Source of the DNA: an uncultured Muribaculaceae bacterium
Lineage (GTDB): Bacteria > Pseudomonadota > Alphaproteobacteria > Rs-D84
Direction of reading: 5' to 3'
Assembly (NCBI GenBank): GCA_965231035.1
Contig: OZ246409.1
Coordinates: 601,101 to 633,100, forward strand
Length of the DNA stretch: 32,000 nt
Shown here: piece after piece, positions 1 to 24,440 of the stretch
Layout of the letters: each line of letters opens with the position of its first letter
How positions within the stretch are numbered: position 1 is the stretch's first letter
Position numbers and translations under genes: made by a program
Notes under the pieces: generated by a model
What the model was told of the DNA's origin: nothing
Databases searched by the model: none
What the model saw: only the letters and a program-made list of their open reading frames with translations

Positions 1-41
1 TTGTTCTTTGTGCACAGGCTTAAACATCAAGGTTTTTATAA

Positions 42-1531
<1,490 letters not shown>

Positions 1532-1693
1532 TAGATTAAACCGTTTCACGAAACGGTCATATTCCAACGGCGACTGTCTGAATATCTCTTTTTGAAAAAT
1601 GTATGGCAATTAGCAGTTAGTATCAGTTATTGCTGGATTGCGTGATCTTATAAGATTATGTGATTAAAAGTAATAGTTGATCACTGTTTTTAT

Positions 1694-1770
1694 GGGTCAG
1701 TAGTTCAGTTGGTTAGAATGTCGCTCTGATACAGCGAAGGTCGAAGATTCGAGTTCTTCCTGACCCACCA
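1694..1770 (+). tRNA. tRNA-Ile (anticodon GAU), 3' CCA encoded
   Basis: 77 nt. Acceptor stem GGGTCAG/CTGACCC, anticodon loop CT-GAT-AC, T arm GAAGA-TTCGAGT-TCTTC. Located in the 16S-23S spacer. Confidence 0.93.
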
Positions 1771-1785
1771 TTTTTATTGATGAGG

Positions 1786-1841
1786 TTAAAATCGTGAAAT
1801 GCTTTCACAGACTTGTCTTTGCAAGTGTTTCACGATTTTAA
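1786..1841 (+). repeat. Perfect 14-bp inverted repeat (stem-loop) in the 16S-23S spacer
   Basis: TTAAAATCGTGAAA (1786-1799) is the exact reverse complement of TTTCACGATTTTAA (1828-1841), with a 28-nt loop. Probably a spacer processing or structural hairpin. Confidence 0.6.
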
Positions 1842-2079
1842 ATGTTCCCTAGGAATTTTTGGAATCTGCTTTTTATAAGTAATTTTGTTAATCGGTTTTT
1901 ATGTCGCAAATCAAAGAAATTTGATTTGTTGAACATCGTAATATAATCTCAAAATATCTTTCTGAAAAAGAGAGTAATCTCGAAAGAGATAATTCAATTA
2001 GAAAAAAAGAACAAGAATCAACTGAATGAACATTTTTAAATGTTCAATGCTTAAAAAACTCATTAAGTAATTTTTTAGA

Positions 2080-2094
2080 CTTACGCTTCAAGCA
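2080..2094 (+). other. 5' arm of putative 23S processing (RNase III-type) stem
   Basis: CTTACGCTTCAAGCA pairs 14/15 with TGCTTGAAGAGTAAG at 4898-4912, bracketing the 23S rRNA. Confidence 0.6.
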
Positions 2095-2100
2095 TAAGAT

Positions 2101-4847
<2,747 letters not shown>

Positions 4848-4897
4848 ATTTTTTGTGTTTGATTTTGCAGCAGTACGCTGCTGTAAAATCAAACCAT

Positions 4898-4912
4898 TGC
4901 TTGAAGAGTAAG
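4898..4912 (+). other. 3' arm of putative 23S processing stem
   Basis: Complementary to 2080-2094. Preceded by a strong hairpin GATTTTGCAGCAG-TACG-CTGCTGTAAAATC (4861-4890). Confidence 0.6.
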
Positions 4913-4966
4913 TTAATAAGAAGATTCTTGATAGTTTGAGATTATAAACGATGTTTATTGTGTTTC

Positions 4967-5085
4967 GTTCTGGTGATTATAGAGCGGGAGTCACCCTCTG
5001 TTTCCATCCCGAACCAGACAGGGAAAACCCGTATCGCCGATGGTACTTTGGCTTAAGCTACGGAAGAGTAGGTCGTCGCCAGAAC
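4967..5085 (+). rRNA. rrf: 5S ribosomal RNA
   Basis: 119 nt. Helix I GTTCTGGTG / CGCCAGAAC. Conserved CCCGAAC, GCCGATGGTACT and AGAGTAGGTCG blocks. Confidence 0.9.
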
Positions 5086-6127: not shown

Positions 6128-6574
6128 ATGGTCTCTCAGAAAGTTACGCAAATGATTAAGTGTGATAATTGTAAATTTTTTAAGAATGGGTGTCCATTGG
6201 GAAACAGTAATGATTTTTGTTTTCCTGTTTTTATAGAATGTTTATATAACAATTTTTTTAAAAAAGAAGAAATTGAGAATATTAAGGAAATTTGTGATAA
6301 TCGTTTTTTGTATAAAGAAGGAAATATAAGTACAATTGAAGTTTATAAAATTTTTGACCGCATAGCACAAAAAAATAGATACTTAAATACTCCGGGACAA
6401 ATAACTGCATACGCATTAACATATCTTTCTATGTCAGAAATAGTGACAATATTACCATTGTATGAAAGTACAGATTTGTCCATAAGTGAAATTATGCCTT
6501 GGGAGGCTTTAAAAGAAAAAAGTAAAAAAATATATATAATTAATAGGCAAAACAGAAAACAGCCTGTTTATTAA
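6128..6574 (+). CDS. Hypothetical protein (148 aa) with Cys-rich N-terminus
   Basis: AAAGG 8 nt upstream of the ATG. N-terminus CDNCKFFKNGCPLGNSNDFCFPVFIEC. Very AT-rich. Confidence 0.6.
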   Translation: MVSQKVTQMIKCDNCKFFKNGCPLGNSNDFCFPVFIECLYNNFFKKEEIENIKEICDNRFLYKEGNISTIEVYKIFDRIAQKNRYLNTPGQITAYALTYLSMSEIVTILPLYESTDLSISEIMPWEALKEKSKKIYIINRQNRKQPVY

Positions 6575-6588
6575 AGATTTTTAAATTT

Positions 6589-7149
6589 CTAAAAATCATA
6601 ACCAATCGAAAAACCGGCGAAATTAAAACCTTCATTTTTTTGTGTAAAGTTACCATTTGAAAAGTGCAGTGTATAAAATTCAGCATTCCAGTGATCTGAT
6701 AATCTTTTACCAATAAAAAATTTTAAACCAAAAACTAACCTGCTTTCGACCCAACGATCACGACTGTCACGCATGTATGGGCCAAGCCCTCCGCCCAGAT
6801 AATAACCATCCCAATTAAAAAAGGAAGCGTCCCAAGATATTCCAAGTGCCCCAAAAGATAATCCAGTATCAGACCTATACGCAACGTTTTGAACCCAATG
6901 CAGACTTTGACGACCTGGTAATCTAAAAATAGTCGAGGGTTGGCTGTATTGCAGCATAAAATTATTCATACTGTTAAATTCCCAAAAATTAGGGGCAATC
7001 AGTTTGAAAAGAGTACCACTGCCAGTTCCTTGAGAAATGTAAAGGTTTATAGAATTTTTATTATCTTTGCCGAACATTGGATTTACATCATCGGCCAATG
7101 CAACCAATGGAATTATGATAAAAAAAAGTGAAAAAATCAGTCTATTCAT
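6589..7149 (-). CDS. Outer-membrane beta-barrel protein, PagL / acyloxyacyl-hydrolase-like (putative lipid A deacylase)
   Basis: Signal peptide MNRLIFSLFFIIIPLVALA|DD. Alternating beta-strand pattern. An H-F-S-N-G motif with a Glu 9 residues after the Ser (PagL-type His/Ser/Glu arrangement). C-terminal ...GYDF, an OMP terminal-Phe signature. Confidence 0.55.
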   Translation of the reverse strand: MNRLIFSLFFIIIPLVALADDVNPMFGKDNKNSINLYISQGTGSGTLFKLIAPNFWEFNSMNNFMLQYSQPSTIFRLPGRQSLHWVQNVAYRSDTGLSFGALGISWDASFFNWDGYYLGGGLGPYMRDSRDRWVESRLVFGLKFFIGKRLSDHWNAEFYTLHFSNGNFTQKNEGFNFAGFSIGYDF

Positions 7150-7364: not shown

Positions 7365-7805
7365 ATGAAAAAAGTACTTGTGTTCGGATTGGTAGGAATC
7401 GTATCAGCAATGTCTGCAAACGCAGCTGTTGTTACGAAAAAAGAAGTTGCAAAAACAGAAACAGCTAAACCAGCTGTTGTATTGGAAACAAAAAAAGTAG
7501 AAACAACAAAAACAGTCCCTGTTACAAAAGAAAATACAAAGGTAGCAACAGTAAAAGCAGCTTCTACAAAAGCAGCCCCAGTAACAAAAGGAACCGTAAA
7601 AGCAGAAACTGTTAAAGCAACCCCAGTAACAAAAGGAACCGTAAAAGCAGAAACTGTTAAAGCGGCTTCTACAAAGGAGAACAAAGCAGTAAAAGAAACT
7701 ACAAAAGTAGCAAAAACAGAAAAAACTGCTGTAAAAGAAAAAACTGATTCTAATAAATTAAAAGAAACAGTTTTGTCAAAAACTGAAAATACAACAAAAA
7801 AGTAA
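7365..7805 (+). CDS. Exported Lys/Thr/Val/Ala-rich repetitive low-complexity protein (146 aa)
   Basis: GGAGA RBS. Signal peptide MKKVLVFGLVGIVSAMSANA|AV. The rest is K/T/V/A/E repeats (PVTKGTVKAETVKA x2). Followed by a + strand terminator. The antisense ORF 7334-7816 is its shadow. Confidence 0.75.
   Translation: MKKVLVFGLVGIVSAMSANAAVVTKKEVAKTETAKPAVVLETKKVETTKTVPVTKENTKVATVKAASTKAAPVTKGTVKAETVKATPVTKGTVKAETVKAASTKENKAVKETTKVAKTEKTAVKEKTDSNKLKETVLSKTENTTKK
7576..7663 (+). repeat. 45-bp tandem duplication (2 copies) inside the Lys-rich gene
   Basis: 7576-7618 is identical to 7621-7663 (43/43 nt). The 45-nt period equals 15 codons. Confidence 0.9.
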
Positions 7806-7822
7806 TTTTTGATCATATAATT

Positions 7823-7845
7823 AAACCCACCGTTTGGTGGGTTTT
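7823..7845 (+). terminator. Intrinsic terminator
   Basis: AAACCCACC-GTTT-GGTGGGTTT plus T. Confidence 0.8.
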
Positions 7846-7849
7846 CTTA

Positions 7850-7878
7850 TTTACACAAGATTTTAAAAATGTTATAAT
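7850..7878 (+). promoter_or_regulatory. Promoter of Cys-rich exported protein 1
   Basis: TTTACA, 17 nt, TG-T-TATAAT (extended -10). CAAGGTGTAT follows 9 nt downstream (7888-7897), the same layout as at 10864-10891. Confidence 0.6.
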
Positions 7879-7962
7879 CAGTGATAACAAGGTGTATAGT
7901 GTGAGGCATTAGTCTCAATATTGGCGGTTATTAAGCATCTGTTGAATTATTTGGAGATAAAT

Positions 7963-10044
7963 ATGAAAAGTCGTAATTTCGGCGAAACACTAAAAAATGC
8001 TACTGGTGCAGTAGTTCTGCTGGCAGCAGCGTTTTTTGTATGTTCTACCATATTGTCTATGCGTGCGGTATTTGCAGATCCAATTGCACCGCAGGTTCAG
8101 TACACAGCTGGAACTCCGCAGGCTCAACGCGCCGGATCACAAAGTGCCAGAACAACTCGTGCAAATAGTAATATTTCAAATTCTGACACAACAGATTCCA
8201 GAACTGTAAAAGGAAGAACCGTAGTTTCACGTTCTTCACAATCAAATACTTCAGTTGTTTCAAGATCTGTTGTTGCACGTTCTGGTGCTGTAACTTCCAG
8301 GGCAACACAACAAAACAGATCTGTTCGTGCCAGAGTTGCTGCTATGCCAGTTACACAGCAAGGTGCTTCGGATTCTTCAAGAGTTTCTTTAACAGGCAGT
8401 GCAATCCGTGGCAGCAAAAGCACAACATCAACCACAACATATAATTATTTAGCAAGCAAACTGTATACTGGAAATTATTCTAATATTATTGATACGTCTA
8501 CTGGTTTGATTTCTGCTGACGCATATAACAACTGTATGCAAAGCTATTATTCTTGTATGGATGAAATTTGCACGGCACGCAGCTCGGCACAGCGTCGTTG
8601 TGCTTGCGCTGGTCGTGTAAAAACATTTGCTGAAGCAGAATCAAAATTAGAATCAGCAAATGAAGAACTGATAACAGTTTCTGGTGAATTGGCTTTGTTG
8701 ATTGCTAATAAGGGTAAAGACATAAGTTCGGCATTTGCGTTGACTGATGCTGAAAAAGTTATGAACTGTGTATCTTATAAAGATATGGCCGAAAAATACA
8801 AAGGTGGAACAGATTTAGACAATAATGATGTTGATGATAAAAAAGAATGGTGTTACAACCATATGATTTATGAAGATGCATGTTCAATGCCATCTTATTG
8901 CTCTTCTTCTGGTAATAATTTTGGGTTTGATGTTTCTAACTTGGATGGTTCTGGCAGTGATATTTTAGCTTCTTTGAAATCTTGGGCCGAAGCAAAAGAT
9001 AAAACATTAACAATTACAACCAGTGATGACAGCGCTTTGAGCAGTGCGTACAGCACAATCAGTTCTATTGTTAGCAATATGAGCGGATTAAGCAGCAGTT
9101 TATCAAGTTCTACAACTACTACGGATTCCTTGGCCGAAACTTGGGGATATGAACTGTTTGAATATGCACACAATAATGTTTGCAATCGCGTTTTAGATTC
9201 TTGCTTTAATGGTATCTATGAAGCTTGCGGAACACCACCGTCCACGGGTCGTGATTGTCCAAATGGTAAAACAGCTTGTCCTTATAACTATAACACATAC
9301 ATAACAGTAACAAACACCGGTACTTATGAGTTGAACTTTGTTACAGGAAGCAGTGGAACCAGTTCCAGCTCGGCGGCAACTTGCTATGGTTATTCCAGCA
9401 GCAGTACAGATCCATACGAAGATTTGCGTGGACCGGTTGCTGATGCACGTCGCAGCATACTGCAAAAATATGCTTTGGATGCAAATGCTGATTGTGATTC
9501 TTATGGCGAACAGTTAAAAACAACTGCGCAAAATATTGGGTATCAAAAAGTTGCAGCACAACAGGCTTTGCAGAAAAAACGTTTAGAATTTGCCCAAGCT
9601 GAAGAAACAAAGACTTTGACAGATGCGACAACTGCTGGCACAAACTTTAATGAATGTATAAATGAAATCTATGATTGCTATACAACGCAAGATACTGCAA
9701 ATCCGTCTTGGAGCACATCTCGTATAAAAACATATTGTGCACAGTTGGCCAATGCTCCGCATTGTTATGAAACTATGATATGCAATCCTTCGGGTGCTCA
9801 GTTCAAAGCGGTTATAGACAAGTTAGATAGTGCCACATGTAACTGGAGTCAGGATTACACAGAAAATACTTGCCGTAATATCGTAACGTTGAACGAAATT
9901 ATGACCAGTGCATCAAGTACAGCCGCAACAAGCCTGCCTGCCGAAGGTTTAACAGGTGATTCAGCAGCAATCCGTGAAATGTGCTTGCAGAATGCGATTG
10001 GTACCGGATCCGATACGTTACGAAACTGGACCGCAACACCATAA
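7963..10044 (+). CDS. Large Cys-rich exported protein, paralog 1 (693 aa), unknown family
   Basis: GGAGA RBS plus ATG at 7963; the TTG at 7921 is less likely. Signal/anchor ...MRAVFA|DP. S/T/R/V-rich basic low-complexity region with VVSRS-type repeats. Then CMQSYYSCMDEICTARSSAQRRCACAG, coiled-coil-like stretches, a Ser-rich linker and many further Cys. Clear similarity to 10941-13244. Confidence 0.8.
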   Translation: MKSRNFGETLKNATGAVVLLAAAFFVCSTILSMRAVFADPIAPQVQYTAGTPQAQRAGSQSARTTRANSNISNSDTTDSRTVKGRTVVSRSSQSNTSVVSRSVVARSGAVTSRATQQNRSVRARVAAMPVTQQGASDSSRVSLTGSAIRGSKSTTSTTTYNYLASKLYTGNYSNIIDTSTGLISADAYNNCMQSYYSCMDEICTARSSAQRRCACAGRVKTFAEAESKLESANEELITVSGELALLIANKGKDISSAFALTDAEKVMNCVSYKDMAEKYKGGTDLDNNDVDDKKEWCYNHMIYEDACSMPSYCSSSGNNFGFDVSNLDGSGSDILASLKSWAEAKDKTLTITTSDDSALSSAYSTISSIVSNMSGLSSSLSSSTTTTDSLAETWGYELFEYAHNNVCNRVLDSCFNGIYEACGTPPSTGRDCPNGKTACPYNYNTYITVTNTGTYELNFVTGSSGTSSSSAATCYGYSSSSTDPYEDLRGPVADARRSILQKYALDANADCDSYGEQLKTTAQNIGYQKVAAQQALQKKRLEFAQAEETKTLTDATTAGTNFNECINEIYDCYTTQDTANPSWSTSRIKTYCAQLANAPHCYETMICNPSGAQFKAVIDKLDSATCNWSQDYTENTCRNIVTLNEIMTSASSTAATSLPAEGLTGDSAAIREMCLQNAIGTGSDTLRNWTATP

Positions 10045-10050
10045 AATATA

Positions 10051-10078
10051 AATAACCCGCAAAAGCGGGTTATTTTTT
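10051..10078 (+). terminator. Intrinsic terminator
   Basis: AATAACCCGC-AAAA-GCGGGTTATT plus TTTT. Confidence 0.85.
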
Positions 10079-10186
10079 GGTTATTCTATATCTTTGTTGA
10101 AATATTTATGCAAAAAGCTTGACTTTTTCAAAAATAATGCCATTATTGTATAAAGTTTTAAACAAACTTAGCAAAAAGGTTTAAAT

Positions 10187-10486
10187 ATGGCAGATTTTGC
10201 AATCTTCTCTACTGGCGGAAAACAATATCGTGTAAAAGTTGGCGATGTTGTAAAAGTAGAAAAACTGAATTCCGAAGGCCAGGTCGAATTCGACCAGGTT
10301 TTAATGGTTGGCTCGACTGTTGGTAACCCATTGGTCAAAGGTGCCAAGGTTATCGCAGATGTAGTTGCCCAAGATCGCAACGATAAAGTATTGGTGTTCA
10401 AAAAGAAAAGACGTCAAAACTATCGTCGTACCAAGGGACATCGTCAACATATCACAGTTTTGAAAATCAAAGAAATAAAAGGCTAG
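10187..10486 (+). CDS. rplU: 50S ribosomal protein L21
   Basis: MADFAIFSTGGKQYRVKVGDVVKVEKL..., typical L21. 99 aa. Confidence 0.93.
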   Translation: MADFAIFSTGGKQYRVKVGDVVKVEKLNSEGQVEFDQVLMVGSTVGNPLVKGAKVIADVVAQDRNDKVLVFKKKRRQNYRRTKGHRQHITVLKIKEIKG

Positions 10487-10530
10487 TGTTCAAGATGTTT
10501 ATTGGACATTAAGACTAAAAGGAGCAAGTT

Positions 10531-10797
10531 ATGGCACATAAGAAAGCAGGTTCGGCATCGGTCAACGGACGCGACAGTGCAGGACGCAGATTGGGTGTTA
10601 AAAAATCAGGTGGCAGCCGTGTTAAGGCTGGCAACATTATTATACGTCAACGTGGAACATCGGTTCATCCTGGATTAAATGTTGGCATGGGTAAAGATCA
10701 TACTTTGTTTGCAAAAATTGCAGGCTTGGTAAAATTTAAAAAAGGCTTTGGCGACAGAAAAGTTGTTTCCATTCTTCCAGACGAAGAATCAAAGTAA
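10531..10797 (+). CDS. rpmA: 50S ribosomal protein L27
   Basis: [25 protein letters not shown]...[31 protein letters not shown]. Confidence 0.95.
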
Positions 10798-10804
10798 AAT
10801 ACAG

Positions 10805-10829
10805 CCGCACAGTAAAATGTGCGGTTTTT
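10805..10829 (+). terminator. Intrinsic terminator
   Basis: CCGCACA-GTAAAA-TGTGCGG followed by TTTTT. Confidence 0.8.
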
Positions 10830-10863
10830 GTTTCAGTTTCTTCTTATTTTTTTCAGAATTTTG

Positions 10864-10872
10864 TGTTATAAT
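10864..10872 (+). promoter_or_regulatory. Extended -10 promoter of Cys-rich exported protein 2
   Basis: TG-T-TATAAT. CAAGGTGTGT follows exactly 9 nt downstream (10882-10891). The upstream CTTATTT block is shared with 7844-7850. Confidence 0.55.
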
Positions 10873-10940
10873 TTCATAAACCAAGGTGTGTATTTTTTTA
10901 CATAACCGGGGTGATTTAAAAATTCGCAAAGGCAGAGTAA

Positions 10941-13244
10941 GTGAAAAAACTTTTCTTGTATTCTTTTCTGATTAGTATTTGCACATCTAATGTTTTTGCT
11001 GATAACTCTGTCGTTGCTTCGCGTGCAGTTCCTTCTGCTGCATCTCAGACCGAGGATAATAATTATTCAGAACCCTCACGTGCTGTGGTAAACAGAAATG
11101 CTGTTGCGTTTCCAGTAGCAGTTGCAAAAACAACAGATTTAACCACAAAAGAAAATGACGATGCAGTTGTATCAAGAAACACAACAATGGTTCAGCAAAA
11201 TGACAACGCACGCAGCACATCAGTTGTTACTAAACCTACAATATCAAGATCAGTTTCTGCTGGAAATTCAGAAAGCACAAGACAAGAGCTTGAACAAACA
11301 GTACGGACTGTTGGTCGTAATGCTCGCGTAGAGTCTGCAAGCATAAATGAAAATCCGGCCCTTCGTCGTATGGGTATAACTCTTCGTCCATCCACAGCAG
11401 AAGTTGGAGGTCGTGCAACTATCGGTAATACAGGTGTTCAAACTGGTTCAAACTTTAACCCTGGGAAAAGCCGCAGTGTTCAAAATCGTGCCGCTGCAAG
11501 TGCGCCAACCAAAGAATCAATTGCTGAGGCAACACAACGTTTGCAACAAACAGCAGAACTTAATAAGTCATGCCAAGAACAATACAATGATTGTATGGAT
11601 CAGTTCTGTTCGGTTATTGACGCAAATCAAAAACGTTGTTCTTGTTCGGCTAATCTTTCCAGATACACCAAGGTTGAATCAGCTGTAAAAGAAGCAAATT
11701 CCGAATTGAATGATGTTGCACAAAGAATTCGTTATGTCGGTTTATCCGCTGATGAAATTCGTGCGATTATGAATTCAACCGAAGCTGAAAAAGTTCTGGA
11801 TCAAACTAAGGACACTTCGCAATCAAGGAATATGTTAGATGAAATTGAAAGTTTGATTAAAAATCCAACAAGTGCAACTTCATCTTCTTCAAGTAATATT
11901 TCAACTGGATTGGATATGGATTTGGACTTTTCATCCAGCGGTTCATCAACAGATTTATTCAGCTTGGATTTATCATCTGGCAGCTCGTCAAGTTTTTCTA
12001 ATTTACGTGGTACAGATCTTTACAGTGCTGCAAAGAAACGCTGTAATACTGTTTTGACACAATGCAAAACTGCTGGTGGTACACCACAACAAATAACGGG
12101 AAATTACGATTTGGCAATTGATAAAGATTGTATTGCCTATGAACAAGGTTTAACAAAGATGAATGAAACCTTGAAATCTAATGTTCGCAGTGCAAACCAA
12201 ATGTTACAAAAAGCTAGATTGGCAGTTTTGCAAAACAAGAATCAGTATGATGCCAAAGGTTGCATATCTGCGTTGAATACCTGTATGGTTGACGATATGG
12301 TCTGTGGGTCAGATTATAAAAAGTGTCTGGATCCAACAAAAAAATACATAGACGAAAATGGCAAAGTTGTTTTGGGACAAAATATTTCAAATATCATCGC
12401 CTTTATGGACGGATATAATAATGCAGAAATAGATTCAACTTATTTGACTGGTGCCATGGCTACTTCATATGAACCCAGCTCTTGCATCAGTGCCGATGGA
12501 AAATGTGTTGCAAAGTATCTTTTGGAAAAAATTGGTACCGGCGCAACAATCAAAGATGGTGGATTATGCAGACCTGTATTGGATAAATGTCAATACTATA
12601 CATACGATTCAAACAGTAATTATGAAAAATATAATGATATTGTTGTTAATTATATTCAACGTGCGATGGTAAATATTTATGCTGCGCAACAGAAGATAAT
12701 TTCTGATTACGCGTCCAGTTGCATGGTTGATATCGCAACTTGCTATAACCAGCAGGTCAGCCAAGTTAACACTTGGTCTTCGACCGCCAGTGTCAGCAGT
12801 ATTTATAATGTTATGCGTGGTGCATGCAGAAATGTTGCTTTGACTTGTTCTTATGCAGTATTTGCAAATGATGCTACTTCTTGTCCAACTTCAGCCCCAG
12901 ATACATGTATAAACAGTATATCGCAAATGTTTTATCAATCATTATTGTGTCCAGATAATTCTACTTATCAATCAACACAGCATGCAACAGATAACAATGG
13001 AACAGTTGTTGGTTATGTTAATGAACGTTGTACGTGTAATTCTGGATACAGTGTATGGAGTGGCACTTGCACATCTTCGTGCGTTCTGGGTGAATATCGT
13101 AGTTCTTTGGGTGTTTGCACCAGCTGTCCAATAGGCACATACGGTGGTGGCGTAACAGGTGGAGTAGAGGCGAGCAGTTGCACAACTTGTGCAAGCGGTA
13201 CAACAATCTCTACGGGTTCTACAGATGAAGGTGATTGTGAATAA
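10941..13244 (+). CDS. Large Cys-rich exported protein, paralog 2 (767 aa), with C-terminal GCC2/GCC3 (ephrin-receptor-like) type Cys repeats
   Basis: GTG start. Signal peptide MKKLFLYSFLISICTSNVFA|DN. Low-complexity region with VVASR/VVSRN motifs. CQEQYNDCMDQFCSVIDANQKRCSCS aligns with paralog 1. Ser-rich linker. C-terminus CTSCPIGTYGGG...CTTCASGTTISTGSTDEGDC. Confidence 0.8.
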   Translation: MKKLFLYSFLISICTSNVFADNSVVASRAVPSAASQTEDNNYSEPSRAVVNRNAVAFPVAVAKTTDLTTKENDDAVVSRNTTMVQQNDNARSTSVVTKPTISRSVSAGNSESTRQELEQTVRTVGRNARVESASINENPALRRMGITLRPSTAEVGGRATIGNTGVQTGSNFNPGKSRSVQNRAAASAPTKESIAEATQRLQQTAELNKSCQEQYNDCMDQFCSVIDANQKRCSCSANLSRYTKVESAVKEANSELNDVAQRIRYVGLSADEIRAIMNSTEAEKVLDQTKDTSQSRNMLDEIESLIKNPTSATSSSSSNISTGLDMDLDFSSSGSSTDLFSLDLSSGSSSSFSNLRGTDLYSAAKKRCNTVLTQCKTAGGTPQQITGNYDLAIDKDCIAYEQGLTKMNETLKSNVRSANQMLQKARLAVLQNKNQYDAKGCISALNTCMVDDMVCGSDYKKCLDPTKKYIDENGKVVLGQNISNIIAFMDGYNNAEIDSTYLTGAMATSYEPSSCISADGKCVAKYLLEKIGTGATIKDGGLCRPVLDKCQYYTYDSNSNYEKYNDIVVNYIQRAMVNIYAAQQKIISDYASSCMVDIATCYNQQVSQVNTWSSTASVSSIYNVMRGACRNVALTCSYAVFANDATSCPTSAPDTCINSISQMFYQSLLCPDNSTYQSTQHATDNNGTVVGYVNERCTCNSGYSVWSGTCTSSCVLGEYRSSLGVCTSCPIGTYGGGVTGGVEASSCTTCASGTTISTGSTDEGDCE

Positions 13245-13253
13245 TAATTAAAT

Positions 13254-13279
13254 AAAAGCGGGATTTAATCCCGCTTTTT
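13254..13279. terminator. Bidirectional intrinsic terminator between convergent genes
   Basis: AAAAGCGGGA-TTTAA-TCCCGCTTTT: 10-bp stem with A/T runs on both sides. Confidence 0.85.
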
Positions 13280-16097: not shown

Positions 16098-17453
16098 CTA
16101 TTTCTTTTTATCATCGCCTCGAAAAGCCTTCCACCAGTCTTTACCTGTTTTAACAGTGTTGCCCCAAACTTTTTTAATATCGTCGTTAACCTTTTTACCG
16201 AATCCTTCGTCAACTGTGCCGCCAATTTTTTTTGCAAAATCCCCAGCCTTGGTCGCCAAGTATGCAACCAAGCATCCAACAATCAGAACAGTCATAAAGT
16301 CATCATTTTGCAATGTCGGAACAGTTGCAGCCATATCTGCATCAACCACACCTGATAATATTGCTGCACATACCGCGATTATTACCGATAAAGATACAAA
16401 ATAAATCATCGCGTTTATAAATCGTTTTATCTGGGAATCCAGGGAAAATGTTTTTGCGTTAAATAATTCCAAGAATCCTTTGAATATTGTTCCGGCATAT
16501 GTATCGTTTGTAGTGCTGCCGCCACCAGTACCAAACGCTTCGATCGGGGCACCAAATGCTGAACTGGTTGAAGGCTTTCCGGAAAAGCACTGGGAAATAG
16601 CAGTAAAAGGCAACATCATAACACCCAAGAATAAATCTGCAATTACTGAAAAAGCCATAATTGCAAACTTCCAAATATTATAAATAAATATCACAACAAA
16701 AACGGCACCCGCAGTAAATGTAAATGCACTGGATCCAATTCCCGCCAGCATCCATTTCCATCCCGCAGCCACAGCAGTATAAAAGAATCCAGAAAGACGA
16801 GTAGGCAGACATAAAAGGTTCGAAACCTGTGACGAATCCATAATTGCAAATTGTGAATGACTGGATGAAACATAATTATGAATTGCGGCACAAGTATCTG
16901 GTAACGAAACTCCAATCGTGGATGTAACCGAATTCAAAATCAAATCAGACAAATATGTCCCAATCGTTATAACCGGACCCATAATCCACATAAACAGCTG
17001 AGCAGGACCTTGTTCTATTATTAAAATCCAAATTGTAATCAGAACTGCTTTGCGAATAATATCTTCGACCAATTCGCGGGATTTTTGTGTTGCCTTCATC
17101 ATTTGATATGCTTCCAACATTATCCAAAATGCAAACATCACAATTAAAAATATTGTAACAAATCTGGTCAAGGATTGTTCCAAGACATTGCTGATCATTG
17201 ACATACCACCAATAAATGCACGACCAACGCGAGCTTCGATCGGAACGTAATCTTTGACCAATACATTTTTTTGAAATTCTGATTGGAAAGAAGAAATGTC
17301 GTCAGTTAAATTATTCACAAATAATTCGCGATTATGATCAGTTGCCCAAACGCCAAAATTTCCAACATCACCAGATGGCATGTTTGATGCGGCAAATGCA
17401 CCGTTGCCCAAAACAAAAACAAAACATAAAAGAGTAATTATCTTTTTAAACAT
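16098..17453 (-). CDS. Polytopic membrane protein, array member D (451 aa); TrbL/VirB6-like architecture
   Basis: Signal peptide MFKKIITLLCFVFVLGNGAFA|AS. Several long hydrophobic spans. ...EQGPAQLFMWIMGPVITIG helix. Cys pair in a loop. C-tail ...IKKVWGNTVKTGKDWWKAFRGDDKKK. The start lies 1 nt after the stop of member C. Coding status is high confidence; the family assignment is inferred. Confidence 0.6.
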   Translation of the reverse strand: MFKKIITLLCFVFVLGNGAFAASNMPSGDVGNFGVWATDHNRELFVNNLTDDISSFQSEFQKNVLVKDYVPIEARVGRAFIGGMSMISNVLEQSLTRFVTIFLIVMFAFWIMLEAYQMMKATQKSRELVEDIIRKAVLITIWILIIEQGPAQLFMWIMGPVITIGTYLSDLILNSVTSTIGVSLPDTCAAIHNYVSSSHSQFAIMDSSQVSNLLCLPTRLSGFFYTAVAAGWKWMLAGIGSSAFTFTAGAVFVVIFIYNIWKFAIMAFSVIADLFLGVMMLPFTAISQCFSGKPSTSSAFGAPIEAFGTGGGSTTNDTYAGTIFKGFLELFNAKTFSLDSQIKRFINAMIYFVSLSVIIAVCAAILSGVVDADMAATVPTLQNDDFMTVLIVGCLVAYLATKAGDFAKKIGGTVDEGFGKKVNDDIKKVWGNTVKTGKDWWKAFRGDDKKK

Positions 17454-17454
17454 T

Positions 17455-18912
17455 TTACTTTTTCTTACTTGCTTCTTCGTTTGCTTTTGTTATTTGTTCG
17501 GTAATTTTTTCAGGTGCGCCCCAAACCCTTTTTCCCATATCTTTTATCCATCCACCATAATCAAAAGGTTCTTTTTTATCTTTGGATTCTTCACTGCCAC
17601 CCAGGAATTCATCAATTTTTGGCGATACCACATAAAAATACAGCAGGTATATTCCAAACATCATCAGCAAGAATTCAAATCCATTTCCCATAAAGTCAAA
17701 TGCACCTGGATATTTTCTTTCTACATCTGCACGGCTGGCGGTAAAGCAGTTTTTGAAAGTTGTTTTATCAATTTGGCCGTCTGTTGTGGCGACCTGTTCG
17801 CATTTCGAAAATACAGCCATCACAGATAATGCCTGGTCATCCATATTTTTGCTGTCTTCGGTAATCAATGGTGGCATAATTGAATTGTACCCGTCATTTG
17901 GTCCTGGAAAATATTCGTCTGCAGCAAAGGATACGATTGCATAAGTTATGATAACCTTTAATGTAATTGCCACAATTCGAACAGCTGATTTAACCAATAT
18001 ATTTATTGCGCCGTTAACCACCCCAGATGCCAGTTGCCAAGTACCTTCGAATGCACCAGCCGCAATAATCAAAGGCAGAAAGATTATCAGAAATATCAAT
18101 TTTATAATAATAGAAAGCACTTGGAAAAACAGGTCGAATCCAATAATCAAAAACATAATTACCAGTGCCAATCCCGCAATCCAGGTAAACGCACCACCGC
18201 CCATTCCCATCCAAGAATAATTCATCAATGAAAATCCACCAGCCGCACCAGCCAGCATAACCGTATTCAAATTGCCCATTACGCACATAAAAGGTTTTAA
18301 TACAGGATTTAAAATATCATCATTTTGAACAGTTGTTCCGCACTGGGCAGAATCAGAAATACCACTAGCAGCCATAGAAAGCTCGGACCCAACAAACATC
18401 ACAGGTGTAATTGTTATATTTGTAATTTGTTTTAATACAGTTGTTCCACCAAATCCCAGAACACCCAACAATGCACCCGCCATCATAACCCGAACAGCTT
18501 GTTTCCATACTTTGTCGAACCAAGGTTTAAATTCAAGCTTTTTTTCAGATGCATCCAATTTTGCATTTTTCTTGGCTGCGTCGAAAATATACATTGCGGT
18601 CGTATAAAATAAAAATATTCCAAATCCAATTGCTAACAGTATCCAGATATTGCTAATCATAGCATTCCAGAATTGTTCTGCGGTACTGCCGATTGTTGCA
18701 AAAAGCTTTTCAATATACCCGCAAAGAAAACATCCGTTGGCACTGGCAATATCACCATTTTTAACACCAACTGCACCCAGAAAACTGTTCAGACTGGTAT
18801 AAGTTATTGCAGCCCCACCAATCGAAGAAGACAAATACCAAATACCCAACCCCAACGCAGTTGCGCCCATAATAAATTTTACAGCAATCTGAATCAGTTT
18901 TGCTTTTAACAT
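17455..18912 (-). CDS. Polytopic membrane protein, array member C (485 aa); TrbL/VirB6-like architecture
   Basis: N-terminal anchor, CFLCGYIEKLFATIGSTAEQFW module, many hydrophobic spans, ITPVMFVG helix, loop Cys pair, C-tail ...GKRVWGAPEK...EEASKKK. The ATG abuts the stop of member B (TAAATG). Confidence 0.6.
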   Translation of the reverse strand: MLKAKLIQIAVKFIMGATALGLGIWYLSSSIGGAAITYTSLNSFLGAVGVKNGDIASANGCFLCGYIEKLFATIGSTAEQFWNAMISNIWILLAIGFGIFLFYTTAMYIFDAAKKNAKLDASEKKLEFKPWFDKVWKQAVRVMMAGALLGVLGFGGTTVLKQITNITITPVMFVGSELSMAASGISDSAQCGTTVQNDDILNPVLKPFMCVMGNLNTVMLAGAAGGFSLMNYSWMGMGGGAFTWIAGLALVIMFLIIGFDLFFQVLSIIIKLIFLIIFLPLIIAAGAFEGTWQLASGVVNGAINILVKSAVRIVAITLKVIITYAIVSFAADEYFPGPNDGYNSIMPPLITEDSKNMDDQALSVMAVFSKCEQVATTDGQIDKTTFKNCFTASRADVERKYPGAFDFMGNGFEFLLMMFGIYLLYFYVVSPKIDEFLGGSEESKDKKEPFDYGGWIKDMGKRVWGAPEKITEQITKANEEASKKK

Positions 18913-20124
18913 TTACTTTTTTTCTTCCTTCTTTTCTTCTTTTTTATCTTCTTTCTTTTCACCACCAAAAACGACTTTGCTGACATCTTTGACAGTTTTT
19001 ACAACATTTTCAGTTACCTTTAATGCATCATTTGCCAGACCTTCATTTAATGATTTCTCTTCTTTGACATCAAATACCCCCATAACCATTTTTGTAACTT
19101 CGCCAACCTGGTCGGACAAGAAATTAACAACATAAACCATAACCACACAACCCATCAAAGTCATTGCCGCCAAATTGTCATCGGATAATGCGCCTGCGAA
19201 TATTTGACCGCTGGTTATCATTTGCATCAATTCTGTTGTAGATGTTCCGCTGTTTGAAAAGAACTTGGCAATTATAACCATAACAACTGTATAAGTTAAA
19301 ACCGCTGCGGACAATGCAATTATCGAATTAATGATATTTTTAATCTGACCAGTCCCAAGTTCTTTGCCCAAAGATTTTATCCAGTCAGGTGCATCGGAAT
19401 TTTTGAAAGCGAACATAACAATAGATAATGGGAAAAAGAATGCAAAAAATGTCATTGCAACAATTATGTCTACAAAGTAAAAACAGAATTTTATAAATAT
19501 CTTAAAAAATTCGTAAACCAGATAAAGTCCCATAAAGAACATTAAAATATGTTTTACCAATGTTCCAACACCCGTTAATGCAACCCAAGAAAAAGCATTA
19601 TCCATAACCGCAATACCCAGTTTAATATATGATTGTAACTGGGTTATCGTTGTCTTCATCAGCATTATAATTGTGTTTCTTAATTCTGGTCTGTAAAAGC
19701 CGGTATCATCCATTTCTTTGGGCTGGTATGTGACTTTTTCATTAACTGTTTCATTGTTTGTGTTAACCATACTTTGCGTATATGCCAATGTCATTTGGGC
19801 CACTGGTTCAAAAGTTATTGTTGAAACAAATCTTGGTAAATAAACACCTAATCCCAACAAAGCAAAAACAAACAACGAATTAATCAATACAGGCTTGATA
19901 GATTTTTGATACATTGGGTCTTCGACACCGCCTTTGATATTTTTCCAAACGGCATACAAAATATAAAAAGCCAGGATTAAACAAAATATCAAAATACAGA
20001 ACAATGAAAACTGACGATACACTGCGGCCGCAGCAACAGAAATAACTTGGAACAGGCGATCAAAAACAGGGCAGCCCCAACACTGCACAGATCCATCAAC
20101 TAAACCGTTTAACCATCCGTTCAT
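18913..20124 (-). CDS. Polytopic membrane protein, array member B (403 aa); TrbL/VirB6-like architecture
   Basis: N-terminal CWGCPVFDRLFQVISVAAAAVYRQF module, about 6 hydrophobic spans, LPRFVSTITFEPV helix, C-tail ...GGEKKEDKKEEKKEEKK. ATGA overlap with member A (20121-20124). Confidence 0.6.
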   Translation of the reverse strand: MNGWLNGLVDGSVQCWGCPVFDRLFQVISVAAAAVYRQFSLFCILIFCLILAFYILYAVWKNIKGGVEDPMYQKSIKPVLINSLFVFALLGLGVYLPRFVSTITFEPVAQMTLAYTQSMVNTNNETVNEKVTYQPKEMDDTGFYRPELRNTIIMLMKTTITQLQSYIKLGIAVMDNAFSWVALTGVGTLVKHILMFFMGLYLVYEFFKIFIKFCFYFVDIIVAMTFFAFFFPLSIVMFAFKNSDAPDWIKSLGKELGTGQIKNIINSIIALSAAVLTYTVVMVIIAKFFSNSGTSTTELMQMITSGQIFAGALSDDNLAAMTLMGCVVMVYVVNFLSDQVGEVTKMVMGVFDVKEEKSLNEGLANDALKVTENVVKTVKDVSKVVFGGEKKEDKKEEKKEEKK

Positions 20125-21380
20125 TTCTTTTTTATCCAGCCAGCTGCTGTTCCTATTTTTTTGCCAAAGTCTTTAATGTTTGTCCAAGTATTCTTTGGAT
20201 CATCTTTTACCTTGTTATACATTGCATCTGACCCTGGTGCATATTTGGTTATCATTCCACGTGTCATATTAAATATTCTGAACATCAAATAGAATGTCAG
20301 TATTGTTGATAACCATAAAATAGAATGTTGTCCAAATCCCATTGCACTGTTGGCAACTGTTGGAACATTGCTGGTGGCTGAGCCGTTTGCAGCAACAACG
20401 AATACAGAAGTGTTCCATTGGAACAGCGCGCGAATTATTGCAATATTTATAACCAGTATGAAAGAGCTGGCAATCATAGTAATAACCAGTTGCTGTAATG
20501 ATTTTATAATTCCTTGGAATGGTGGCCATGGATCAATCCATTTATTGCTTTGCTTGGAAACCCAAACCAGAACATTAAAGGGATATAAAACCAGCGACAT
20601 ACCAAAAGTAAATATTCCCTGGATAATAAGCATAGCCATAAAGAGATTACTGGCAACAAAGGTCCAAATTAACAATACTCCGGTTATTAAATTCAAGAAA
20701 TCTTCACCACCATGCGGAACCAGCGTCATTAATCCAGCCAACCCCTTGTTCACAAAATCAAAGCCTCGTTTTATAACTTGGTTATTGGCATGTGAAAGGG
20801 TTGAAACCGGTTGAACCAAGAAGTCACAACTGGACTCTGAAATCCAGCCTTTGTCCAAAACAGATTTTGGGCATTCAATTTTTTTTGCAGGCGCAGTATT
20901 TGTGTTTATGCTGTCCGTAATATTTTCTGTATAGATTGCGCCGAATTTCAAAAATGGATCAACAATAAAATCTGTCACGTAAATTGGTTTTATCTGTAAC
21001 AAAATAGTTGCAGCAATTATTGCACGCATTGCGGGTTTCAAAACTTGGTCTTGGATCATTTGCATACCGGTTATTTTTCCTTCCCACATTTCGCCACCGG
21101 TTTTATCGCTGAACCCAAATAAAGAGAGCCAATTTTTTGGGAAATACATTTTTACAAAATAAAGCCCAATTGAAACACCCAAAATTCCCCAAATAAAAAC
21201 ATAGATAATTCCATCACCATTACCAACAAAGAATTCGTATCCACCAGTTGCAACAGACATCAATGCATCCAAAACTGTTGGAACAATTGGTGCCAGATTC
21301 AAACTGTCAACAATACCCCAGCTGGCATGAGCAGGAGTGATAAATAACAAAGCAAGAAGAGAAAATAACCATTTCTTCAT
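20121..21380 (-). CDS. Polytopic membrane protein, array member A (419 aa); TrbL/VirB6-like architecture
   Basis: Signal peptide MKKWLFSLLALLFITPAHA|SW, then VPTVLDALMSVATGGYEFF amphipathic module, hydrophobic spans, VDPFLKFG helix, loop Cys pair, C-tail ...PKNTWTNIKDFGKKIGTAAGWIKKK. Confidence 0.6.
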   Translation of the reverse strand: MKKWLFSLLALLFITPAHASWGIVDSLNLAPIVPTVLDALMSVATGGYEFFVGNGDGIIYVFIWGILGVSIGLYFVKMYFPKNWLSLFGFSDKTGGEMWEGKITGMQMIQDQVLKPAMRAIIAATILLQIKPIYVTDFIVDPFLKFGAIYTENITDSINTNTAPAKKIECPKSVLDKGWISESSCDFLVQPVSTLSHANNQVIKRGFDFVNKGLAGLMTLVPHGGEDFLNLITGVLLIWTFVASNLFMAMLIIQGIFTFGMSLVLYPFNVLVWVSKQSNKWIDPWPPFQGIIKSLQQLVITMIASSFILVINIAIIRALFQWNTSVFVVAANGSATSNVPTVANSAMGFGQHSILWLSTILTFYLMFRIFNMTRGMITKYAPGSDAMYNKVKDDPKNTWTNIKDFGKKIGTAAGWIKKK

Positions 21381-22854: not shown

Positions 22855-23364
22855 ATGAAGTCGGTTCCGATTCTTTATTGGTCACGTAAAACCAACAATG
22901 ATACTGAGTATCAGTTGGCTCGTAAAACGATAAGCTCTGTGCATGGTGTTATGCCAGAAGTTATCGCAGGCGAATACGATATTGTAGAATTATTGTCAAA
23001 AAATCCTGACAGCGTCCTTTATTATCCTGTATTTTGTGGTTCGACTGGCTGGTGGGGCGAATTTTTGGGTGGTCAGGCATCGGTTACAGATAAAATAATA
23101 ATATCCCCTGAATGTCAATTAATGGCCATAGAAATGGGTAGCATCCAACCAAAAAAAGGTCAAAACCAATTATTGGCAGCCGAAATATATCCAACCAGTG
23201 GATTTTTTAAGAAAATGAATTCATCTGTTGCAACAGTTGTTGATATGTTGGCAACTGATGCTGGAACTATCCTGGCATTGTTTTCTGGCAAAAGCCATAC
23301 ACAGCTGGTAAATATTTTAGAATCGACAGGAAACTCCTATTTGGGGTGTATCGGTCGCTATTAA
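22855..23364 (+). CDS. Hypothetical protein (169 aa)
   Basis: Open frame with composition typical of the neighbouring housekeeping genes. No motif I recognise. Confidence 0.6.
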   Translation: MKSVPILYWSRKTNNDTEYQLARKTISSVHGVMPEVIAGEYDIVELLSKNPDSVLYYPVFCGSTGWWGEFLGGQASVTDKIIISPECQLMAIEMGSIQPKKGQNQLLAAEIYPTSGFFKKMNSSVATVVDMLATDAGTILALFSGKSHTQLVNILESTGNSYLGCIGRY

Positions 23365-24391: not shown

Positions 24392-24440
24392 GAATAATAT
24401 TAAGTTTGGAAAGAGATTGTGGATAGTTCAAGGAAATAAA

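Follow-up and report, generated by a model that had tools for sequence, protein, structure and literature searches.

Two cysteine-rich exported paralogues beside rplU-rpmA in the Candidatus Enterousia/Rs-D84 lineage: members of an undescribed family with a predicted scaffold role

The chlamydial proteins OmcB and OmcA of the cysteine-rich outer membrane complex are Sec-exported, cysteine-rich proteins of ~60 kDa, conserved in a host-dependent lineage with small genomes. OmcB has a basic N-terminal region, a disulfide-cross-linked structural role and a beta-rich structure, and an adhesive function has also been attributed to it. The two proteins analysed here, A and B, are likewise exported, cysteine-rich and conserved in a small-genome lineage, but the likeness is a functional analogy only, since A and B show no sequence or Pfam relationship to OmcB/OmcA and are predicted to be all-helical. 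Autotransporter and inverse-autotransporter (type V) adhesins of diderm bacteria also join a conserved cell-proximal part to a variable distal binding part, whereas A and B have no detected beta-barrel translocator and a helical predicted structure. In the twin CX9C and CX3C hairpins of mitochondrial intermembrane-space CHCH proteins, according to one account, same-face cysteine pairs at a fixed spacing form two disulfides that staple two antiparallel helices (PMC12114033). The C-x6-C pairs of A and B, situated on predicted helices, suggest by analogy the same structural logic, although the spacing is x6 rather than x9 or x3, and A and B are 700-aa multi-block bacterial exported proteins rather than small single hairpins. 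A C-x6-C can also close a local loop, as described for the CX6CC motif of gamma-retroviral Env (PMC11575397).

Genes A and B lie on either side of rplU-rpmA in a window of 32,000 nt (the whole stretch of DNA analysed), with the following features (sequence positions of the window; aa, positions in the protein):

7850..7878, + strand: promoter-like site upstream of A, TTTACA-17-TATAAT with TG (extended -10), 11 of 12 positions matching
7963..10044, + strand: gene A, 693-aa cysteine-rich exported protein (A subfamily), ORF, 24 Cys in the mature part
7963..8076, + strand: N-terminal signal peptide or signal anchor of A, aa 1-38, ending AVFA/DP, read from the sequence
8077..8442, + strand: basic disordered S/T/R/V-rich tail of A, aa 39-160, with VVSR-type motifs
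8509..8772, + strand: shared 'CMD' domain of A, aa 183-270 (hhalign match to B; domain alignment)
9133..9228, + strand: most conserved block of A, aa 391-422, AETWGYELFEYAHNNVCNRVLDSCFNGIYEAC, 99% column conservation
9418..9699, + strand: long predicted helix of A, aa 486-579 (AlphaFold2 secondary structure)
10050..10075, no single strand: bidirectional intrinsic-terminator-like hairpin after A, 11-bp stem then T run on both strands
10187..10797, + strand: rplU (10187-10486) and rpmA (10531-10797), ORFs, Pfam Ribosomal_L21p and Ribosomal_L27 on the identical public contig
10803-10826: terminator hairpin after rpmA
10864..10892, + strand: extended -10 TGTTATAAT (10864-10872) and downstream CAAGGTGTGTA, 5' of B
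10941..13244, + strand: gene B, 767-aa cysteine-rich exported protein (B subfamily), ORF, 32 Cys in the mature part
10941..11000, + strand: classical signal peptide of B, aa 1-20, MKK...NVFA/DN, read from the sequence
11001..11525, + strand: disordered N-terminal region of B, aa 21-195, pLDDT 22-54 (AlphaFold2)
11547..11807, + strand: shared 'CMD' domain of B, aa 203-289 (hhalign match to A; alignment)
11853..12014, + strand: Ser-rich disordered loop of B, aa 305-358 (pLDDT <50; composition)
12015..12950, + strand: helical core of B, aa 359-670, almost all helices (AlphaFold2)
13008..13241, + strand: variable C-terminal module of B, aa 690-767, Cys-rich short beta-hairpins, furin-like/ephrin-receptor-like
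13254..13278, no single strand: bidirectional terminator-like hairpin after B, common to the convergent dnaQ-like gene, 11-bp stem then T run on both strands

Both reading frames and a cysteine block common to them are present where a preliminary description had located them, the block reading exactly as given there, although its word 'giant' overstates proteins of 693 and 767 aa. Gene B has a GTG start, while the stop-to-stop frame of gene A extends upstream to a TTG at 7921; its start is placed at 7963 because homologues begin there, at MKSRN. The cysteine block reads CMQSYYSCMDEICTARSSAQRRCACA in A (from aa 191, nt 8533) and CQEQYNDCMDQFCSVIDANQKRCSCS in B (from aa 211, nt 11571). When the window is translated in six frames, a relaxed version of the motif is confined to these two sites, and of the 240 homologues fetched all but one (239) contain the full motif. 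BLASTP detects no alignment between A and B (E 67), but profile methods are significant: hhalign matches A185-267 with B205-286 (~80 columns) at 97.7% probability and E 2.1e-12, and the family HMM of one protein recovers the other with E 6e-8 and 4e-10. Three further weak collinear blocks follow the CMD domain in the profile comparison, among them A370-415 with B336-379 and A497-566 with B385-450; the latter corresponds to the helical stretch that the preliminary description had regarded as shared, and in A it falls within the long predicted helix (hmmsearch domain 2). Judged by these profiles, A and B are distantly related paralogues with a common architecture, as had been proposed, and their alignment is significant outside low-complexity sequence.

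The impression that the family was unrecognised held up in BLASTP, profile and Foldseek fold searches: neither protein matches a family in Pfam, NCBIfam, PDB sequences or PDB/BFVD folds, and we found no description of the family in Pfam, NCBIfam, PDB or the literature searched. Each protein has >1000 homologues, all named 'hypothetical', and relatives of B are encoded in 291 stretches of a one-genome-per-species collection. The 80 B loci kept come from 80 different assemblies, with B single-copy in every one. An exhaustive search with a CMD-domain profile returned 448 clusters among 1.84 billion representatives, the best of which, on examination, were all A-like or B-like. The named sources of homologues are all uncultured Alphaproteobacteria of the Ca. 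Enterousia/Rs-D84 type, with genomes of <1 Mb. A and B, each present in a single copy, are thus the two paralogues of a genuine family that is undescribed and restricted to these tiny-genome, partner-dependent bacteria. The lineage consists of fermentative anaerobes without respiratory chains, flagella, standard uptake transporters or most biosynthesis; a dependence on other cells and a large number of uncharacterised membrane proteins have been proposed for it (PMC12306168).

Both proteins follow one layout, in which a Sec-type signal sequence leads into a disordered Arg/Ser/Thr/Val-rich tail of 120-170 aa, a cysteine block with a helix, a Ser-rich loop, a highly conserved core predicted to be helical and a variable, Cys-rich C-terminus. 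The signal peptides had been expected to end FA/D, and both signal-peptide-like N-termini do. In B the family consensus is MKK....FF..AFF.P.AFADD, while the hydrophobic stretch of A spans 18 aa and is unusually conserved, with G15...A38 D39 P40 invariant in the homologue alignment (Kyte-Doolittle hydrophobic segment 9-38; AlphaFold2 helix 6-36). The tail of A is strongly basic (net charge +13; AlphaFold2 pLDDT ~25) and variable in sequence, with its Arg positions conserved across homologue columns. The VVSR-type repeats ascribed to both proteins are borne out in A, with 4 copies versus 0.43 in shuffles (p ~4e-4), and not in B, where the single exact copy is not significant and looser variants such as VVASR and AVVNR occur. 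The N-terminal region of B contains a conserved Arg-rich segment at ~aa 120-185, and R103, R114, G125, R126, R129, R142, R143, R149, G156, G157 and R158 are invariant. The CMD domain of A (column conservation 94%) has the pattern C-x3-Y-x2-C-M-D-x2-C-x9-C-x-C, followed by a helix, and the block at aa 391-422 contains one C-x6-C and overlaps the collinear stretch A370-415. The Ser-rich linkers noted previously coincide with low AlphaFold2 confidence. Confidence is also low for the whole A model (pLDDT 49), whereas the core of B reaches pLDDT ~70-90 over roughly aa 390-670 (about 52-55 at aa 361-390), with column conservation of 0.86-0.93 over most of its length, falling to 0.61-0.67 at aa 481-540.

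The cysteines of the mature parts (24 in A, 32 in B) are even in number, and almost all are invariant in ~50 orthologues of each protein. The conserved core is predicted to be all-helical with cysteines recurring at i, i+7: B contains 9 C-x6-C pairs versus 1.25 expected (p<5e-5), 8 of them in the core, and A contains 4 versus 0.85 expected (p ~0.009), at positions that AlphaFold2 places in helices. Median identity is 59-60% for A and B versus 65% for the neighbouring UvrD, and the core blocks are 94-99% conserved per column, with both N-terminal and C-terminal tails variable. In B, the C-terminal module (column conservation 0.22-0.60) resembles furin-like and ephrin-receptor-like repeats (PF07699; EGFR/HER2; protist surface proteins) in the cysteine spacing and short beta-hairpins of its last ~70 residues. 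Its score against Pfam Ephrin_rec_like (E 4.8e-4, 20.3 bits) is, however, below the 23.1 cut-off, and the likeness concerns the tail rather than the family-defining core; a precomputed PF07699 entry is present in 3 B orthologues, and the best Foldseek matches, to HER2/EGFR Cys-rich domains, are weak (E 0.6). Among 107 B-like cluster representatives, 60 have >100 extra C-terminal residues; of 30 long forms, 7 carry Listeria-Bacteroides repeats (Pfam Flg_new, InlB B-repeat) and 2 carry Ephrin_rec_like, and one is named 'InlB B-repeat-containing protein [Candidatus Enterousia scatequi]'. These repeats lie C-terminal to the core, which is unrelated to internalins, and A and B of the window contain no Flg_new repeats.

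The most likely reading, to which we assign a probability of about 0.4, is that A and B are exported, probably disulfide-stapled scaffolds presenting a variable C-terminal module. After export, the even-numbered, invariant cysteines would form disulfides, assumed here, that staple adjacent helices, giving a scaffold that is rigid and elongated; the two proteins would have a common fold and may pair; the scaffold could be held on the anionic cell envelope by the basic disordered tail; and the variable module, facing outward, may bind a partner or host that these metabolically dependent bacteria need. The pair could then be viewed as a conserved stalk with an exchangeable tip, and A and B probably form an envelope or surface scaffold. 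Several lines of evidence are consistent with this: (i) the signal-peptide-like N-termini and the number and invariance of the cysteines; (ii) their heptad spacing on predicted helices; (iii) the common descent of A and B, with collinear blocks (hhalign E 2e-12); (iv) the disordered tails, basic in A; (v) the modular C-terminus of relatives; (vi) extended -10 promoters and flanking terminators; and (vii) the partner-dependent lifestyle (PMC12306168). On the other hand, disulfide bonding is an assumption in a non-respiring anaerobe, the A model is of low confidence, and the surface repeats of relatives are absent from the window proteins. The adhesin or host-interaction role suggested earlier is plausible in view of the variable, modular C-terminus, but Pfam/NCBIfam scans of A, B and long relatives found no outer-membrane translocation or anchoring domain (no autotransporter barrel, lipobox or recognised secretion signal). 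Moreover, because both proteins are single-copy with conservation near that of neighbouring housekeeping genes, their pattern is, as far as the sequences tell, unlike that of fast-evolving adhesins.

The same observations sustain a serious, if less probable, rival, in which both proteins serve the envelope as structural or assembly factors, located in the periplasm or tethered to the inner membrane, essential in the lineage and not surface-exposed. For A the tether would be a signal anchor left uncleaved at the N-terminus, and the disordered tails would reach across the periplasm or the peptidoglycan. Near-housekeeping conservation, the single copy of B, the lack of a translocation domain and the nearly invariant hydrophobic stretch of A, more anchor-like than a signal peptide, argue for it, as do neighbouring envelope functions (PagL, PBP1a and the mraY-ftsW-murG cluster). 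However, where gene order is rearranged B sits among unrelated housekeeping genes, and its context thus offers no link specific to the envelope; the variable tails are unlike a buried machine part, and the Listeria-Bacteroides and ephrin-receptor-like expansions are modules usually found on cell surfaces.

A five-gene membrane array lies 3 kb downstream. The earlier suggestion that A and B are its extracellular partners is not supported, and it is improbable that they serve as its partners or substrates, with the invariant periplasm-facing CxxC of the array forming or reshuffling their disulfides. CxxC is invariant in M2, M3 and g439, and further loop cysteine pairs are invariant in M1, M2, M4 and g439 (42-45 genomes); array and A/B alike are confined to this lineage, and no more than a few kb separate B from the array in several genomes with rearranged gene order (loci L013, L035, L058 and L064). 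B-array synteny nevertheless holds in roughly half of the 80 loci, and at least 12 with full 10-kb flanks have B but no array nearby. In small, stable genomes, a shared lineage and kept gene order argue weakly for a functional link, and profile and family searches found no similarity of the array proteins to DsbB, VKOR or any other family.

About equally doubtful is an exported redox or metal buffer for an anoxic habitat, with free or metal-bound thiols, an arrangement that would recall the cysteine-rich surface proteins known from anaerobic gut protists. These bacteria lack respiratory chains (PMC12306168), and therefore the usual quinone-linked periplasmic disulfide route may be missing; the C-terminal module also resembles CxxC-containing repeats of eukaryotic surface proteins. 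Nonetheless, the i, i+7 spacing and even, invariant cysteine counts better fit paired staples, and a buffer has no need for 94-99% conservation of the non-cysteine residues around them. Least probable are soluble secreted effectors or toxins acting on a partner or host cell, such as membrane-active helical proteins: signal peptides, a partner-dependent lifestyle and an acidic helical core with a basic tail would fit, but Pfam, NCBIfam, PADLOC-independent scans and the fold search found no toxin or enzyme domain, the genes are neither polymorphic nor multi-copy but highly conserved, with one copy each, and no immunity-like small gene is consistently adjacent at the B loci.

A promoter and a terminator of its own had been claimed for each gene, and the hairpins are real, the A promoter matching at 11 of 12 positions with TG and B having an extended -10. 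The extended -10 promoters, together with the flanking terminators, point to strong and independent transcription of A and B. The composite found 5' of B recurs 5' of A at 7870-7898, and the pattern TGTTATAAT-N9-CAAGGTGT occurs only at these two sites in the window (0 expected). Only its extended -10 part is kept in other genomes, where TGnTATAAT recurs 5' of A.

Two genes, A and B, which encode Cys-rich exported proteins, flank rplU and rpmA in the window, which is an exact match to a contig of assembly GCA_035352695.1. The features concerned are as follows:

41-5084, rRNA operon, after which the protein-coding genes come
7963-10044, plus strand, ORF A, 693 aa
10187-10486, rplU, between A and B
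10531-10797, rpmA, between A and B
10941-13244, plus strand, ORF B, 767 aa, GTG start

Both ORFs were found again in the window, confirming that the pair reported in the preliminary description is real and brackets rplU-rpmA; among its observations only the word "giant" was an exaggeration for proteins of 693 and 767 aa. The Cys block quoted there is exact (aa 191 of A, nt 8533; aa 211 of B, nt 11571). In relaxed form, the Cys motif occurs only at the A and B sites in a six-frame translation of the window, and all but one of the 240 homologues fetched (239) have the full motif.

Judged by sequence, A and B are old paralogues of one architecture. BLASTP of A against B gave no significant alignment (E 67), so that profiles were needed, and with these the proposed paralogy and common architecture were borne out: the A-family HMM matches B at E 6e-8, the B-family HMM matches A at E 4e-10, and hhalign of the two family alignments returns 97.7% probability and E 2.1e-12 over ~80 columns. 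The strong segment shared in the reciprocal HMM searches spans the Cys block and continues through the following helix, accompanied by three weaker collinear segments, A370-415/B336-379, A497-566/B385-450 (inside which falls the helical stretch singled out earlier) and A564-586/B591-615, with per-segment E values of 3e-4 to 7.5e-3, each weak alone and in the same order in both directions. Downstream blocks common to both subfamilies read G-x-E-L-[FY]..A...C..VL..C, Y.L....DC..Y...L...LQ[KQ].RL and C..[DE]I..CY..Q. We define the family by an 85-aa domain (the CMD domain), C-x3-Y-x2-C-M-D-x2-C-x9-C-x-C plus the next helix, lying ~170-300 residues from the N-terminus; it spans aa 183-270 of A and aa 203-289 of B, and 17 of its columns are invariant over both subfamilies in a joint alignment.

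The family is restricted to one lineage, with two single-copy paralogues per genome. Clustered at 90% identity, the homologues of A and of B each form >1000 clusters, typically 55-77% identical and all unnamed or titled "hypothetical protein". In a scan of one genome per species, 291 stretches encode a B relative; the best 80 of these 291 loci come from 80 different assemblies, in which B is thus single-copy. The sources of the B loci are titled Candidatus Enterousia, uncultured Alphaproteobacteria or "Rickettsiales bacterium"; they originate in an anoxic spring and in the guts of humans, ruminants, chickens and termites. An exhaustive HMMER search of 1.84 billion representative proteins with the shared-domain profile returned 448 clusters at E<=0.001; all 158 sequences fetched from them classify as A-like (28) or B-like (130), a third class being absent, and the two named sequences are from one Enterousia and one unnamed alphaproteobacterium. 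Enterousia is placed in the order Rs-D84 and is fermentative, with genomes of <1 Mb; Rs-D84 members have neither flagella nor standard uptake transporters, are unable to synthesise most building blocks, are proposed to rely on other cells and, never cultured, are widespread with Ca. Enterousia in human, livestock, bird and termite guts (PMC12306168). One full syntenic Enterousia-type block lies on a contig deposited as "Bacteroides fragilis" (CAVGNU010000001.1), a bin that is probably mislabelled or contaminated.

That the family is undescribed, as first suggested, held in every library searched. Scanned against Pfam and NCBIfam, A, B and 38 relatives gave no family for the core, a PDB sequence search with both family profiles gave nothing below E 0.38, and Foldseek gave nothing at E<=0.001 for the AlphaFold2 models of A and B against PDB or of B against BFVD, returning generic long-helix proteins. 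The shared domain is absent from the viral contigs scanned, and papers on Enterousia and Rs-D84 are silent on these proteins. Among specific candidates, (i) no beta-barrel translocator (type V or inverse autotransporter) was matched by Pfam or NCBIfam in A, B or the 38 relatives, and AlphaFold2 predicts helices and small hairpins only; (ii) the lipobox [LVI][ASTVI][GAS]C does not occur in A or B, because the -1 residues of the signal-peptide cysteines in F-F-V-C-S (A) and I-S-I-C-T (B), V and I, fall outside the consensus; (iii) Sel1 repeats (Helicobacter Hcp type) and Flg_new (PF09479, Listeria-Bacteroides repeat) have no Pfam match in A or B; and (iv) the alanyl-aspartyl peptidoglycan-linkage motif, a feature of Brucella outer-membrane proteins, is excluded as the predicted mature ends begin with D rather than AD. 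Chlamydial OmcB, a Cys-rich envelope protein, is the nearest functional analogue that we can name, but it shares neither sequence nor domains with A and B (no chlamydial or DUF11-type family among Pfam and NCBIfam matches at E<=1 and E<=0.1), and its fold class differs from that predicted here.

Both proteins carry export signals, followed by a disordered tail (basic in A), a helical, Cys-patterned core that is nearly invariant and a variable, modular C-terminus. The signal-peptide-like N-termini with FA|D cleavage noted previously can be read in both sequences: in B, a classical signal peptide of 20 aa (MKK...NVFA|DN), and in A, a 38-aa N-terminus ending AVFA|DP, in which an 18-aa hydrophobic stretch is nearly invariant, so that an uncleaved signal anchor is possible. 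There follows a disordered tail of 120-170 aa (AlphaFold2 pLDDT ~25), S/T/A/R/V-rich with a net charge of +13 in A and less basic (+5) in B; its sequence varies, and several Arg positions are conserved. The VVSR-type repeats ascribed to both tails are enriched in that of A (4 versus 0.43 in shuffles), the tail of B having one exact motif. Beyond it lie the CMD domain, a Ser-rich loop predicted to be disordered, and the helical core, modelled at pLDDT ~70-90 in B and poorly in A (mean pLDDT 49). B ends in ~70 residues of predicted Cys-rich short beta-hairpins; this C-terminal tail scores 20.3 bits (E 4.8e-4) against Ephrin_rec_like (PF07699), for which the Pfam gathering threshold is 23.1 bits, its best Foldseek matches are weak ones to HER2/EGFR Cys-rich domains, and three B orthologues (P0004, P0009 and P0108) have a precomputed PF07699 entry.

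Almost all mature cysteines, 24 in A and 32 in B, are invariant. A step of seven residues from one cysteine to the next occurs nine times in B, where 1.25 would be expected (p<5e-5), and four times in A, where 0.85 would be (p ~0.009); most of these pairs fall within predicted helices. Because positions i and i+7 lie on one face of a helix, this spacing suggests disulfide pairs that would staple neighbouring helices, by analogy with the CHCH twin-CX9C principle; as retroviral Env shows, C-x6-C may instead close a loop locally. The CHCH hairpin is the nearest structural principle, but spacing and scale differ, and CHCH membership, which takes two CX9C (or CX3C) motifs in a helix-turn-helix linked by two disulfides, is rejected for a spacing of x6.

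Conservation is distributed unevenly along the proteins. Over the same genome set, A and B reach median identities of 59% and 60%, compared with 65% for UvrD, 72% for DnaQ and 76-85% for the two ribosomal proteins. Column conservation is 0.9-0.99 in the core (99% over A391-420) and 0.2-0.6 in the N-terminal tail and C-terminus, and length variation is concentrated at both ends. More than 100 extra C-terminal residues are carried by 60 of 107 B-like representatives, and more than 300 by 22 of 107. These extensions are Cys-rich; among long B-like relatives, Flg_new repeats occur in 7 of 30 and Ephrin_rec_like in 2 of 30 at E<=1e-3 (best 2.2e-6), and in long A forms the only similarity is a weak, Cys-rich, CPL1-like one. 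Such C-terminal modules are ordinary surface-protein repeats.

The reading that we favour, at a probability of roughly 40%, can be set out in four steps: (i) the cysteines would form helix-stapling disulfides after export; (ii) the core would thereby be a rigid scaffold, possibly an A-B heteromer; (iii) the basic tail would contact the anionic envelope; and (iv) the variable C-terminal module would be exposed and bind a partner or host. The earlier suggestion of an adhesin survives in part, the variable C-terminal repeats of relatives making an adhesin-like tip plausible. The main rival, somewhat less probable, is that A and B are structural factors residing in the periplasm or tethered to the inner membrane, which would fit their housekeeping-like conservation and the lack of an outer-membrane translocation domain. 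Roles as a thiol or metal buffer or as secreted effectors are each improbable. As large, exported proteins that occur throughout the lineage members sampled and have no homologue of known function or fold, A and B are concrete candidates for the structure, in the envelope or at the surface, that underlies a partner-dependent lifestyle, and they offer a way into the cell biology of a gut lineage that is widespread and uncultured; they are possible targets for antibodies, FISH-coupled sorting and cryo-ET interpretation, and the recurrent C-x6-C helical pattern may represent a new disulfide-stapling motif.

Five polytopic paralogues with Lys-rich C-termini, M1-M4 and g439, form a membrane array downstream of B:

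16098-17453, minus strand, M1
17455-18912, minus strand, M2
18913-20124, minus strand, M3
20121-21380, minus strand, M4
21467-22786, plus strand, g439

The array proteins have no match in Pfam, NCBIfam or PDB sequences, and their homologues are "hypothetical" proteins of the same lineage. Across 42-45 genomes, an invariant CxxC directly precedes a transmembrane helix in M2, M3 and g439, probably facing the periplasm by the positive-inside rule, and further invariant loop Cys pairs occur in M1, M2, M4 and g439. These recall the logic of DsbB and VKOR, by analogy only, and a comparable redox role is conceivable. Identification of the array as VirB6/TrbL of a Rickettsiales-style type IV secretion system is rejected (no TrbL match at E<=10, no Pfam, NCBIfam or PDB support), its neighbours being uvrD, a gene for a 169-aa protein and inositol monophosphatase, with no type IV secretion genes. 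A partnership of A and B with the array, also proposed in the preliminary description, found no support, as B stands alone in at least 12 loci with full flanks; that A and B are substrates of the CxxC array is improbable. As a long shot, A, B and the five membrane paralogues could form one lineage-specific envelope system, in which the membrane proteins would serve as a DsbB/VKOR-like but unrelated thiol oxidase or isomerase set; with it, a non-respiring, minimal alphaproteobacterium could assemble a disulfide-stapled helical fibre of A and B, whose exchangeable C-terminal tip would attach the cell to the partner from which it feeds.

The order PagL - A - rplU - rpmA - B - dnaQ - uvrD - M1-M4 - g439 - 169-aa ORF is found in about half of 80 related loci. 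PagL-A adjacency persists through several rearrangements, and A directly adjoins B without ribosomal genes in three loci (L009, L033 and L039). In L020, the one locus with B alone that was examined in detail, the genes around B are unrelated housekeeping genes, found again in almost none of the other loci. As the genomes are small and stable, synteny is best read as inherited gene order and not as functional coupling, and we rejected assigning function from gene neighbourhood: the neighbours of a moved B are unrelated housekeeping genes, and the PagL-A and A-B linkages look inherited. The PagL-like lipid A 3-O-deacylase (6589-7149, minus strand; Pfam E 1.7e-10, HFSNG motif) implies an LPS-bearing outer membrane.

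An own promoter and a strong terminator for each of A and B, as described previously, are both predicted in the window: an 11/12 sigma-70 match with TG for A, an extended -10, TGTTATAAT, for B, and strong hairpin terminators 3' of A, rpmA and B. These signals are consistent with strong and separate transcription of A and B. A longer element has only two sites in the window (0 expected):

7870-7898, before A, TGTTATAAT-N9-CAAGGTGTRTA
10864-10892, before B, the same element

The extended -10 recurs upstream of A and B in many genomes and alone is general; a shared A/B regulatory element is rejected, as related genomes do not conserve the CAAGGTGT part.

Several small ORFs lie near these genes. 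A 146-aa ORF (7365-7805, plus strand), to which the terminator hairpin at 7823-7844 belongs, encodes a signal peptide, after which comes low-complexity sequence rich in K/T/V/E/A and containing TKGTVKAETVKA-type repeats; it has no Pfam match, and a counterpart was detected in none of the 80 related loci. A 148-aa ORF (6128-6574, plus strand) without a signal peptide has a Cys-rich N-terminus (CDNCKFFKNGCPLGNSNDFCFPVFIEC) and no family match, and is shared only with L001 and L002, which are the closest relatives. Two plus-strand ORFs, at 22855-23364 (169 aa) and 24366-24914 (182 aa), belong to no Pfam family; the former accompanies the membrane array in 38 of the 80 loci, at a median identity of 65%.
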